From the NCBI GenBank assembly GCA_016868815.1, contig VGFQ01000013.1:3746-67745 (forward strand): a DNA stretch of 64,000 nt. Reading direction: 5' to 3'. The notes under the pieces are model-generated. The model saw nothing but the letters and a program-made list of their open reading frames with translations, was not told the origin of the DNA and searched no databases. Of the stretch, positions 1,384-4,526 are shown in pieces. Made by a program: the position numbers and the translations under genes. How positions within the stretch are numbered: the stretch's first letter is position 1; the number at the start of each line of letters is the position of its first letter. Source of the stretch: Bacteroidota bacterium (GTDB taxonomy: Bacteria > Bacteroidota > Bacteroidia > Chitinophagales > Chitinophagaceae).

Positions 1384-2745
1384 ATGGACATCCGCAACAA
1401 CATCCTCGAGACAATCGGCGATACGCCCCTAGTACGTCTCCACCGCATCGTTCGTGACTGGCCCTGTGAGGTCCTGGCAAAAGTCGACTATTTCAACCCC
1501 GGCAACTCCATCAAAGACCGTATGGCCTTGAAGATGGTAGAAGTGGCAGAGCGTGAAGGAAAACTCAAGCCCGGAGGCACCATCATCGAATGCACCTCCG
1601 GAAATACCGGCATGGGGCTGGCACTGGCAGCGATTGTTAAAGGATATAAGTGCATTTTCACGACCACCGACAAGCAGTCGAAAGAGAAGGTCGACATCCT
1701 CAAGGCCGTCGGGGCAGAAGTCATCGTGTGCCCGACGAATGTGGAACCGGAAGATCCCCAGAGCTATTACTCCGTTGCCCGGCGCCTGGCAAGGGAGATC
1801 CCCAACGCCTTCCACTGCAACCAGTACGACAACCTGGCCAACCGACTTGCTCACTATGAAACGACAGGCCCTGAGATCTGGCGCCAGACAGAGGGGACGG
1901 TCACCCACCTGGTTTGTACAGCCGGGACAGGTGGCACCATCACCGGCATCGCGCAGTATCTAAAAGAACAGAACCCTGCCATCCAGGTATGGGCAATCGA
2001 TGTCTTTGGATCTCTACTCACGAAATACTTCCGTACCGGCGAGGTCGATCCCAACGAAGTGCATCCCTACATCTCAGAAGGCTTTGGAGAAGACTTCGTA
2101 CCCGAGAATTATGACATGTCTGTCATCGACCACTTCGAGCAGGTGACCGACAAAGACGGGGCCGTGATGGCCAGAAGGCTGGCAAGGGAAGAAGGACTTT
2201 TCTGCGGCTACAGCGCCGGCAGCTGCCTGCAAGGGCTTGCACAGCTTAAGTCGAGACTTCGCGCCGGAGACAGGGTGGTATGCATCCTGCACGACCATGG
2301 CAGCCGCTACATTGCAAAAATCTACAACGACCAATGGATGATGGAAAGGGGCTTCTTGGAGGTGAAGACTTTCCGCGACATCGTCCAGGGCCGCGGCAAC
2401 CATCAAAAGCTCATCACCTTGCACCCCAGCGAAACGGTAGCGACGGCTGTCGAGCGCATGAAGAAATTCGACATCGAACACATCCCCATCTTTCAGGATA
2501 GGGAGCCCATCGCAGCGGTCAGCGAGGCAGGACTCTTCCAGAAAGTGTTTTCCAACCCCGATATCCGCAATGCCAGGCTCGCAGAAGTCTTGGAGCCGCC
2601 CTACCCAGTGGTCGACTTCCTGACCCCTGTCGAGCGACTCAGCACCCTCATCCATAAAGAAAACGGGGCCGCACTCAGCAGAGACGAGGCCGGCAGCTAT
2701 CAGATCGTCACCAAATACGACATCCTGCAGGCATTGGCCCGCTGA
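1384..2745 (+). CDS. cbs: Cystathionine beta-synthase / cysteine synthase family PLP enzyme with C-terminal CBS domains
   Basis: NPGNSIKDR PLP-lysine motif, TSGNTG, AGTGGT phosphate loop and a C-terminal CBS pair. Confidence 0.9.
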   Translation: MDIRNNILETIGDTPLVRLHRIVRDWPCEVLAKVDYFNPGNSIKDRMALKMVEVAEREGKLKPGGTIIECTSGNTGMGLALAAIVKGYKCIFTTTDKQSKEKVDILKAVGAEVIVCPTNVEPEDPQSYYSVARRLAREIPNAFHCNQYDNLANRLAHYETTGPEIWRQTEGTVTHLVCTAGTGGTITGIAQYLKEQNPAIQVWAIDVFGSLLTKYFRTGEVDPNEVHPYISEGFGEDFVPENYDMSVIDHFEQVTDKDGAVMARRLAREEGLFCGYSAGSCLQGLAQLKSRLRAGDRVVCILHDHGSRYIAKIYNDQWMMERGFLEVKTFRDIVQGRGNHQKLITLHPSETVATAVERMKKFDIEHIPIFQDREPIAAVSEAGLFQKVFSNPDIRNARLAEVLEPPYPVVDFLTPVERLSTLIHKENGAALSRDEAGSYQIVTKYDILQALAR

Positions 2746-2921
2746 GCCCAGCCTGGCGGTAAGCGGCTCATCTTCAGCCGACAACAGGGAGTAGATCCCG
2801 TGGCAGGCATTCCCGATACGTAATTGTACGTATGCGCGTCCAGGGCTGACATCGTATTTCCCCCAAGGAGGAGATCGCAATAATACTCCTCATAAAACCA
2901 TAGAAATCAAGTATTTCTGCT

Positions 2922-2953
2922 CTTGTTCACGAAGATGCAACCGTCTATTTTTG
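2922..2953 (+). promoter_or_regulatory. Bacteroidota housekeeping sigma promoter driving the intergenic RNA
   Basis: TATTTTTG at 2946-2953 matches the TAnnTTTG -7 box. CTTG at 2922-2925 approximates the TTTG -33 box at canonical spacing. Predicted +1 is near 2958. Confidence 0.65.
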
Positions 2954-2957
2954 TGTC

Positions 2958-3444
2958 AGAAGTTGATCGAAAGGGACGGAGGCAGAAACCCAACAATCCT
3001 AAGAAAGACCAACCATCCGAAAAGAGATTCCAATTCCTATGAACGCGGTTTCCGCACCCACGGTCAACTTCTCATTCACATCCAAGATCTTAGAAAACCT
3101 GTCGACAGATCCCATCCTTGAAAACTGATCCATCCCTCTGAGAAACCAAGCGATCCAATCATCCAAAACCCATTCAATCCCCTCCTGTGAAAACCGAGTA
3201 AGCCTGGTGCTTACGACATCCGTACCCTAGTGAAACCTGGCAACTTTTTTGCCGTCACGATCCAATCCTACCAAAAACCAGTTCAGTCAAAGTAAACCAT
3301 TGACCCTGACAACTGAAAAACCGCCAGCAAGGTTCTCAAACCATCCGTTGTGGCACCTCTGGCCCTCGCATCCATATCCTGGATCGCAGCAGGTTGTTGA
3401 CTGAACAAAAGCATTCCCGGAGCGCGTCTCCGGGAATTTTTTTT
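2958..3444 (+). ncRNA. Candidate ~490-nt structured, repeat-rich non-coding RNA (unknown family)
   Basis: No ORF of 60 aa or more. It is flanked by a promoter and an intrinsic terminator. Long-range helices pair 2958-2969 with 3061-3072 and 3281-3290 with 3397-3406. By hand count there are 10 AAACC and 16 ATCC motifs, plus several small hairpins. Confidence 0.65.
3413..3444 (+). terminator. Rho-independent terminator
   Basis: Perfect 10-bp stem ATTCCCGGAG-cgcgt-CTCCGGGAAT followed by T7. Confidence 0.9.
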
Positions 3445-3611
3445 GCATGAACCGAGAAGCCCTAAGACTTCCGGATGCGCATGACCTCGTAGCAGTATGA
3501 GGTCAGGTCGTCCATGCGGGTCCCACCTTTTTCCTTATTTTCGTTCTTTGTTCCGGAAGGGCTGCCTGTCCACCTCCCGCAAGGTGGCTGAGCCATCTAA
3601 AAACGACTTCG

Positions 3612-4526
3612 ATGCCAATGGAATTTCCACAGGAGTTTGAAGCCGGCCTGCCAGGCAGCAATGCGAAGGGTGACAGCTCAGGCAGCTGGTTTCGGAGGAT
3701 CAAAAAAGGCATCAGCACTTCTACGGCCGATAAAAAAGAGGCACCGGACGGTCTATGGACGCGTTGCCCCCAGTGCAAATACACCTGTACCACGCTGGAG
3801 TTAAAGGAGCACCTCTATGTCTGTCCTTCCTGCCAGTACCATCACCGCATCGGAAGCCAGGAGTATTTCGACCTTCTATATGATGAGAAATCCTGGAAGG
3901 AGCTCTTCGACAATGTCTTCTCGATAGATTACTTGGACTTCAGCGACCTGAAGCCATACCGGAAGCGGCTGGAAGATGCTTATTTCAAAACCGGCTTGCA
4001 TGATTCCATCTCCGTTGCAGAGGGAGTTGTCAAAGGCCATGCGCTGGTGACCTGCTGTATGGACTTCAACTTCATCGGTGGTTCCCTGGGCAGCGTGATG
4101 GGTGAGAAGATCACAAGGGCAGCCGACCACTGCCGGGCGCACAAGATCCCATTGCTGATCATCAGCAAGAGCGGTGGTGCCCGCATGATGGAAAGTGCTT
4201 TCTCGCTGATGCAGTTGCCCAAGACCCTTGGCAAGCTAGCCTTACTTGCCGAGGAAGGCGTACCCTATATTTCCCTATGCACAGACCCGACCTATGGGGG
4301 AACGACTGCCTCTTTTGCCATGATGGGCGATGTCAACCTAGGAGAGCCTGGTGCGCTTATAGGGTTTGCAGGCCCTCGTGTCATCCGCGAAACAATCAAG
4401 AAAGACCTGCCGGAAGGCTTCCAAAGTTCAGAGTTCGTTCTGGAGCATGGCTTCCTCGACAGGATCGTGCCCCGGAAAGAGATTCGCGACACCCTGGCGA
4501 CCTTAATGCTGCATTTCCGAAACTGA
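3612..4526 (+). CDS. accD: Acetyl-CoA carboxylase carboxyltransferase subunit beta
   Basis: LWTRCPQC...CPSC zinc finger, GGSLGSVMGEKI, SGGARMMES, DPTYGGTTASF and IGFAGPRVI. The start could instead be ATG 3618. Confidence 0.96.
   Translation: MPMEFPQEFEAGLPGSNAKGDSSGSWFRRIKKGISTSTADKKEAPDGLWTRCPQCKYTCTTLELKEHLYVCPSCQYHHRIGSQEYFDLLYDEKSWKELFDNVFSIDYLDFSDLKPYRKRLEDAYFKTGLHDSISVAEGVVKGHALVTCCMDFNFIGGSLGSVMGEKITRAADHCRAHKIPLLIISKSGGARMMESAFSLMQLPKTLGKLALLAEEGVPYISLCTDPTYGGTTASFAMMGDVNLGEPGALIGFAGPRVIRETIKKDLPEGFQSSEFVLEHGFLDRIVPRKEIRDTLATLMLHFRN

Follow-up and report, generated by a model that had tools for sequence, protein, structure and literature searches.

A stand-alone non-coding RNA gene of about 490 nt, at positions 2958-3444 (+) of a 64,000-nt stretch of Chitinophagaceae DNA (assembly GCA_016868815.1, contig VGFQ01000013.1, positions 3,746 to 67,745; hereafter the window), probably works as a tandem-array sponge, or decoy, for a small RNA (sRNA) resembling the FopS sRNAs of Bacteroides. 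We call this gene product the large RNA. A preliminary description, made from the letters of the window, had proposed a multi-site sponge for an RNA-binding protein, for example of the RRM or cold-shock type. The multi-site sponge architecture is supported by the present analysis, but the proposed ligand is not, because the two motif types of the array, put together, give the reverse complement of an invariant, multicopy sRNA, each supplying one half, and the repeats are best explained by RNA pairing rather than by protein binding. Gene anatomy, conservation across the family, helix covariation, complementarity to the sRNA and co-occurrence with it were all observed in silico.

Proposed partner small RNA

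The sRNA was found by looking genome-wide for further copies of the ATCC-N-ATCC...AAACC unit, which yielded two loci with a common element of about 62 nt. The copies in the window's genome are sRNA-like genes of about 65 nt at G000 C3:249442-249515 (+) and C2:249646-249712 (+). On the strand opposite to the unit, the element reads 5'-GGUUUUUCAUAGGAUAUUGGAUUUUAAAAC, then a hairpin, then UUUUUUUU. Its 24-nt 5' seed, GGUUUUUCAUAGGAUAUUGGAUUU, is invariant across genera of Chitinophagaceae, the hairpin shows abundant compensatory changes, a U-run follows the terminator hairpin, and, in flanks that are otherwise unrelated, a TAnnTTTG-like box lies 4-5 nt upstream. A seed-plus-terminator sRNA is built in this way, and by these features the element looks like a real gene. 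Paralogues differ in an upstream motif around -35 to -40, which is either ATGCAGCGTT or GGGTATTG (loci L205 and L217), and the two distinct motifs suggest that the copies are regulated differently.

The element is present in 27 of 27 genomes of the window's genus, in 1-4 copies each and at 90-94% identity. BLAST searches located it in 105 of 151 genomes of the family (about 70%), with 1-7 copies per genome, and outside the family its occurrence is merely sporadic. No Rfam family scored above threshold at the sRNA loci, where the sole relevant match was a sub-threshold one to the FopS model RF04319 (18.8 bits, E = 0.73, against a gathering score of 56); this match covers the full model with the predicted strand and boundaries. 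The element also has the FopS-type layout, namely a single-stranded 5' seed containing UUUUUCAUAG, a Rho-independent terminator and several copies per genome.

Linkage between the sRNA and the large RNA is infrequent. Across 139 loci, four sRNA genes lie within 8 kb of a large RNA, two of them directly upstream. In rare tandem cases the sRNA gene precedes the large RNA by approximately 200-700 nt, with the same orientation wherever this was checked (L085, L088 (Flavisolibacter metagenome-assembled genome, MAG); G163:C1:3483816-3484221; G202:C469:4794-5646).

Predicted seed-complementary sites

Sites were predicted with RNAduplex using nt 1-26 of the sRNA, counting non-overlapping duplexes with dG <= -14 kcal/mol. 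The large RNA contains 11 such sites, against 2.7 (maximum 6) in 100 dinucleotide shuffles, while the reversed seed finds 2 sites and the sense element none. The seven long RNAs of the genus carry 10-18 sites each, compared with 2-3 in shuffles, and in 62 of 62 family RNAs the number of sites is above that of the RNA's own shuffles. Enrichment of short words points the same way. When 6-mers in the tails of 62 family RNAs are ranked by enrichment, nine of the top ten fall within the reverse complement of the sRNA 5' region, CCCCGUUUUAAAAUCCAAUAUCCUAUGAAAAACC, and none within the sense strand (hypergeometric p ~1e-19); this list of 6-mers had been computed before the sRNA was known.

Within the window, predicted site 1 occupies positions 2984-3011 (+; dG -23.2 kcal/mol) and site 2, UUCCAAUUCCUAUGAA, positions 3024-3047 (+; -20.1), the latter being the family's most conserved loop element. 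Further along the plus strand follow sites 3 (3079-3100; -18.3), 4 (3106-3127; -15.6), 5 (3126-3148; -21.7), 6 (3151-3171; -17.0) and 7 (3175-3196; -20.6). Sites 8 (3217-3238; -16.0) and 9 (3258-3280; AUCCAAUCCUACCAAAAACC; -20.9) are preceded by insert hairpins at 3198-3214 and 3239-3253, respectively, and the series ends with sites 10 (3296-3323; -16.0) and 11 (3369-3391; -14.6). Over 92 sites, predicted pairing concentrates on sRNA nt 1-8 and 12-21, and the intervening AUA is often unpaired, which accounts for the recurrence of two motif types with a variable linker: nt 1-8 (GGUUUUUC) are predicted to pair with GAAAACC and nt 12-21 (GGAUAUUGGA) with AUCC-N-AUCC. Predicted accessibility is also higher at the sites (unpaired probability 0.63) than in the remainder of the large RNA (0.35).

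The phylogenetic distribution of the two RNAs is nested. All 49 family genomes (49/49) with the large RNA also have the sRNA, whereas 55 have the sRNA alone (Fisher p = 1.3e-10), and the window's genus repeats the pattern, with the sRNA in every one of the 27 genomes and the large RNA in 10 of 41, mostly the larger ones, so that about three quarters are without it.

Gene anatomy and coding potential

The large RNA lies inside an 866-nt gap between a PALP+CBS gene (cbs, 1384-2745) and accD (3612-4526), and the domains of the flanking genes (PALP and CBS; carboxyl-transferase and Zn-ribbon) agree with the location given in the preliminary description. A Bacteroidota-type promoter spans 2919-2953 (+), with GCTCTTG (-33 TTG) at 2919-2925 and TATTTTTG (-7 box TAnnTTTG) at 2946-2953; the two boxes and their spacing from the 5' helix are conserved across 141 family loci and in five genus members. 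The conserved 5' domain (2957-3073, +) is closed by helix P1, which pairs 2958-2969 with 3061-3072 over 12 bp including one U·G and encloses a loop of about 90 nt with two sRNA-complementary sites. An intrinsic terminator at 3413-3445 (+) consists of a 10-bp stem and a 5-nt loop (stem-loop 3413-3437) followed by U8, and equivalent terminators close seven of seven same-genus homologues. The -7 box, the terminator and the 12-bp helix had all been described before and were found again where they had been placed, the box and terminator being conserved in the genus and the helix covarying in the family. Between the terminator and the start of accD, at window positions 3445-3611, are some 165 nt with no obvious accD promoter box in the part read.

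The 16 ATCC and 10 AAACC motifs previously counted by hand recur at exactly the listed positions and far exceed dinucleotide shuffles (mean 4.2, maximum 12 for ATCC; mean 2.1, maximum 6 for AAACC). They had been read as AAACC-insert-ATCC units with hairpins as inserts. The motifs and the hairpins are present, but the repeat unit is better written [AUCC-N(0-3)-AUCC]-N-[GAAAACC], the insert hairpins show no conservation, and CTGTCGACAG is limited to a 3-bp stem. GC skew falls to -0.41 over 3001-3200, which makes the plus strand G-poor, with C in excess over G. A second helix defines a 3' domain (3281-3406, +) enclosing predicted sites 10 and 11. Its strands, GTTCAGTCAA (3281-3290) and TTGACTGAAC (3397-3406), are exactly complementary over 10 bp as reported, but it is kept in only three of seven same-genus homologues; a 7-bp counterpart (UGUUCAG/CUGAACA) occurs in G018 and G015 and is absent from the other four genus homologues.

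No conserved open reading frame was found in the large RNA, the longest AUG-initiated frames being 14-48 amino acids and differing among the seven genus homologues, in agreement with its earlier designation as non-coding. The lone AUG of the 5' domain is replaced by AAG, UUG or ACG in relatives. A small-peptide mRNA is rejected in view of these non-conserved frames and the non-conserved AUG. A cmscan search against Rfam 15 in E-value/permissive mode gave no meaningful match in window positions 2000-4500 or in 15 related and distant loci, as expected for the undescribed family that had been suggested. BLAST and a covariance model detected no paralogue of the large RNA in its own genome, where it is single-copy.

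Distribution and conservation

The preliminary description had named conservation in relatives as a check on the gene, and BLAST finds the gene in other species of the genus, a covariance model in many Chitinophagaceae. In other species of the genus, BLAST recovers the same promoter, the helix CAGAAGUUGAUYGA...UCRGUCAACUUCU, an array rich in AUCC and AAACC, and the terminator; all of these parts and the 5' domain are intact in seven genus species despite at least 25% sequence divergence. A covariance model of the 5' domain (R1), to which the window copy scores 107 bits, matches 69 of 201 family genomes and 52 of 151 genera, often with 2-4 copies per genome, and had no match among about 340 genomes from other families of Bacteroidia. 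When named genomes were scanned for the pattern, the family proved to be Chitinophagaceae, including Flavisolibacter, Flavihumibacter, Puia, Niastella, Paraflavitalea, Terrimonas and Agriterribacter; among named cultured carriers are strains of Flavisolibacter, Flavihumibacter, Puia, Niastella, Paraflavitalea and Longitalea. In most genera the large RNA measures 260-430 nt, and one class in the window's genus is expanded to 468-716 nt.

Across 37 sequences helix P1 is 96.9% paired, with covariation at four of the 13 pairs (GAAG/CUUC versus AAAG/CUUU). Position 11 switches between U·G and U-A, which is compatible with a plus-strand RNA only. The P1 signal exceeds 500 of 500 shuffles, slid registers come nowhere near it, and the helix has an invariant core, AAGUUGAU/AUCAACUU. 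Taken together, the comparisons support the large RNA as a real, conserved, previously uncatalogued non-coding RNA gene that is specific to Chitinophagaceae.

Two contigs labelled Citrobacter, L090 (QFQQ01000036.1) and L127 (CAZPPM010000007.1), bear the Chitinophagaceae 5'-domain RNA with a Bacteroidota promoter; these MAG contigs are probably mis-binned or mislabelled. Short 5'-domain copies that adjoin a response regulator were also seen (L201 (G032:C18), L202 (G012:C62), L031 and L058:7788-8745). Such short copies are followed by TTTACG...CGTAAA palindromes and then by a conserved protein of about 123 amino acids without a Pfam family (motif MLKKE..L..N(I/V)G(E/Q)HIG(Y/F)E.GAKMIKD(Y/F)Y...), which is encoded downstream at 12 loci but not in the window's genome.

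Genomic context and candidate regulation

Across the 141 loci, the commonest neighbour of the large RNA is a NarL/LuxR-type response regulator (REC+GerE), present at 103 of them, usually divergent and about 315 nt upstream. Many loci carry a multi-pass membrane protein, a HisKA_3 kinase and a second regulator downstream, and 20 loci share the window-like arrangement with cbs upstream. A TTAC-N10-GTAA palindrome centred at -79 occurs in 69 of 137 promoters, compared with 11 in shuffles. The window itself has an upstream palindrome, ATACGTA-ATTG-TACGTAT (core CGTA-N4-TACG), at 2816-2833, roughly 133 bp before the predicted start. In an upstream alignment of five same-genus species CGTA..T.TAC is invariant while the flanks are otherwise poorly conserved, and the palindrome is a candidate operator for a dimeric regulator. 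Adjacency in other genera suggests that a NarL-type system controls the large RNA.

The membrane protein-kinase-regulator operon of the window's genome (G000 C12:123-2288, -) is strikingly AT-rich, encoding proteins with a high content of I, K, N and Y. Neither the divergent regulator gene (C12 2528-3214) nor the genome as a whole, at 57% GC, is AT-rich. The kinase operon may be fast-evolving or acquired.

Proposed function and alternative explanations

In the scheme that we favour, whose transcription, physical pairing, direction of control, regulator and targets we infer, the large RNA would offer about 11 accessible, imperfect copies of the seed complement, two in the loop of the conserved 5' domain and the others in an expandable array. 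[AUCC-N-AUCC] would pair with GGAUAUUGGAU and [GAAAACC] with GGUUUUC of the sRNA. Once transcribed, the large RNA would take up sRNA molecules in large numbers, relieving the mRNAs that the sRNA targets. By analogy with FopS, the sRNA itself may repress translation starts, given the AUG AAA AAC in its complement, and its targets would probably be the initiation regions of envelope or transporter genes. Transcription of the large RNA is probably controlled by a regulator that binds the conserved upstream palindrome; in other genera this would most likely be the divergent NarL/LuxR-type response regulator next to the RNA gene.

Several results weigh against this scheme. In the window's genome the regulator-membrane protein-kinase-regulator module sits on another contig (C12:123-3214), with the RNA not adjacent, and strict co-occurrence of the large RNA with the NarL-type regulator was not found, since many same-genus genomes that are without the large RNA retain orthologues of the regulator. 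For these reasons control by such a system can only be suggested. Nor did a search for sRNA targets in this small genome give convincing candidates: the full 25-nt seed complement matches the sRNA genes alone, duplexes at translation starts score no better than those of four shuffled seeds, and relaxed patterns gave nothing convincing, with only anecdotal candidates in other genomes. Part of the excess of sites is a direct consequence of the ATCC/AAACC enrichment that first drew attention to the region, the seed is invariant and so offers no covariation with the sites, and a motif-spacing test did not discriminate the order of the units. Finally, a genome-wide k-mer proxy places the large RNA above the 99.9th percentile, yet only among the top 3-5 windows; this proxy discriminates weakly because AT-rich coding regions score nearly as high.

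Other explanations account for some of the same observations. We consider it unlikely that single-stranded AUCC/AAACC units titrate an RNA-binding protein of the RRM, KH or cold-shock type. Such a role would suit an array that is G-poor, largely unpaired and made of short repeats, in a genome with a single RRM protein (C4:186923-187165) and a single cold-shock-like protein; the association with a NarL-type regulator recalls the control of RsmY/Z by GacA, and in Bacteroides the RRM protein RbpB binds and antagonises FopS-class sRNAs (PMC11697453). It leaves unexplained, however, why the motifs, with a flanking CCCGUUU in other genera, spell the reverse complement of an invariant sRNA (p ~1e-19) and why the large RNA is confined to sRNA-bearing genomes, and no candidate protein co-varies with it. 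A protein partner may exist, but the repeats can now be accounted for without one. The complementarity and co-occurrence could also reflect a reversed or different role, in which the sRNA directs decay or remodelling of the large RNA, or the large RNA stores or stabilises the sRNA, and the structured 5' domain with its invariant core hints at more than the display of sites. Yet 11-18 sites per molecule far exceed what the regulation of one RNA would need, and array length is free to vary between species (468-716 nt), as expected if only site number matters; we find such a role improbable.

We give very little credence to the idea that the units imitate the initiation region targeted by the sRNA (AAUCCAAUAUCCUAUGAAAAACC) and so titrate ribosomes or a factor binding that region. 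Although the seed complement has AUG followed by AAA AAC, like FopS targets, and the unit at 3024-3047 retains UAUGAA, only one of the 11 units of the window RNA keeps an AUG, which relatives do not conserve, and conservation falls on the blocks predicted to pair with sRNA nt 1-8 and 12-21. It is just as hard to see the large RNA as non-functional in this genome, whether as a decaying relic of antisense duplications of the sRNA gene or as an element acting as DNA. The absence of the large RNA from some three quarters of same-genus genomes would fit a relic, but promoter, 5' domain, array and terminator are intact in seven species at 25% or greater divergence, the helix covaries with strand-specific U·G pairs, and the strong asymmetry of C over G between strands is maintained. 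A tandem-array sponge for the FopS-like sRNA is the reading that we carry forward.

Significance

To our knowledge, Hfq, ProQ and CsrA are absent from Bacteroidota, a phylum whose post-transcriptional networks have only begun to be mapped. If the proposed scheme is correct, an abundant soil and freshwater family runs a three-tier circuit, in which a two-component system acts on an array sponge, the sponge on a multicopy, seed-invariant sRNA, and the sRNA on its targets. High sponge capacity would then be reached through repeated sites and not through high expression, a design so far known mainly from eukaryotic microRNA (miRNA) sponges. It is quite possible, though we stop short of calling it probable, that the large RNA is the first tandem-array sRNA sponge of natural origin in bacteria, as well as the first sponge RNA of any kind in Bacteroidota, with 10-18 imperfect target-mimic sites, NarL-type control and a site number tuned by array expansion in one genus. 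The large RNA would then stand as the base-pairing counterpart of Gac/Rsm and as an analogue of ciRS-7 in bacteria. Two uncatalogued RNA families are gained with ready covariance models, and the Bacteroides FopS/GibS seed is linked to a much wider distribution.

Comparison with known systems

Sponge RNAs and anti-sRNAs are known in Proteobacteria and Firmicutes, and include SroC-GcvB, the chbBC spacer-ChiX, AgvB-GcvB, 3'ETS-leuZ and RosA-RoxS. Those that we know of carry one or two sites. A sponge RNA has also been described in Caulobacter (PMC12559287), and neither sponge nor decoy RNAs come up in a 2026 review of sRNAs in Bacteroidota. Like the known examples, the large RNA is a putative non-coding transcript complementary to the seed of a trans-acting sRNA, would sequester that sRNA and would be expressed under control of its own; the complementarity is predicted for an sRNA of the same cell, and the large RNA is found only where the sRNA occurs. 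It differs in presenting about 11 sites (10-18 in relatives) in a tandem array instead of one or two. Moreover, bacterial sponges are usually Hfq-dependent and processed from mRNAs or tRNA spacers, whereas the large RNA is a stand-alone gene with a structured 5' domain, and tblastn found no Hfq in the genome.

The partner sRNA resembles FopS/GibS (RF04319; PMC11697453) in being multicopy and approximately 65-70 nt long, with a single-stranded 5' seed followed by a terminator. Its seed, given above, compares with the Bacteroides FopS/GibS seed consensus GUGUUUUUCAUAGUAUUAGAUUU (PMC11697453), and the seed complement has an AUG and A-rich codons. It scores below the RF04319 gathering threshold, however, and its hosts are Chitinophagaceae and not Bacteroidaceae.

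CsrB and RsmZ titrate CsrA, and CrcZ titrates Hfq/Crc. The large RNA shares with CsrB and RsmX/Y/Z, under GacS-GacA, a length of several hundred nucleotides, many short repeats and a proposed action by titration. The CsrB/Rsm RNAs are activated by a NarL/LuxR-type regulator through an upstream palindrome, and the counterparts here are a divergent NarL-type regulator and TTAC-N10-GTAA in other genera. The repeats are AUCC/GAAAACC here and GGA in hairpin loops there, and the proposed ligand is an RNA instead of a protein. Membership of the CsrB/RsmX/Y/Z group was rejected on every point tested, with no Rfam match, few GGA motifs and no CsrA. Within its 487 nt the large RNA has 5 GGA and 2 ANGGA, three of them within the 5' helix region or the terminator, and an E. 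coli CsrA query returned nothing at E <= 1e-3 by tblastn in the 92%-complete genome; the preliminary description had likewise argued that the partner would not be CsrA. A CrcZ-type Hfq/Crc sponge, which would combine A-rich AANAANAA motifs with Hfq, was also rejected, as tblastn detected no Hfq and the conserved cores are AUCC and AACC.

GlmY-GlmZ with QseE/F (GlrK/R) offers a parallel in arrangement, in that a decoy RNA gene reportedly adjoins its activating two-component system (PMC8745638). GlmY differs as a single-site mimic that titrates the protein RapZ, and its regulator is NtrC-type and sigma-54 dependent. The hth-associated non-coding RNA of dCas12f-sigmaE systems is found at dCas12f guide-matching sites beside hth, rpoE and dcas12f (PMC13472631). 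A comparison by gene neighbourhood lends no support to its kinship with the large RNA, as no sigma-factor/rpoE or Cas12f-like gene cluster is among the recurrent neighbours in the 141 loci.

Eukaryotic miRNA sponges include ciRS-7/CDR1as and the plant target mimic IPS1. They resemble the large RNA in that a single small RNA finds many imperfect sites in tandem, mismatches at the centre being tolerated; belonging to another domain of life, with other machinery and no sequence relation, they provide an analogy only. A multi-site docking array for an sRNA is an arrangement rare in bacteria, for which a sponge role is most likely. While sponge RNAs themselves are of an already known kind, what is new here is an RNA family with an array architecture, together with a second uncatalogued family, that of its partner sRNA.

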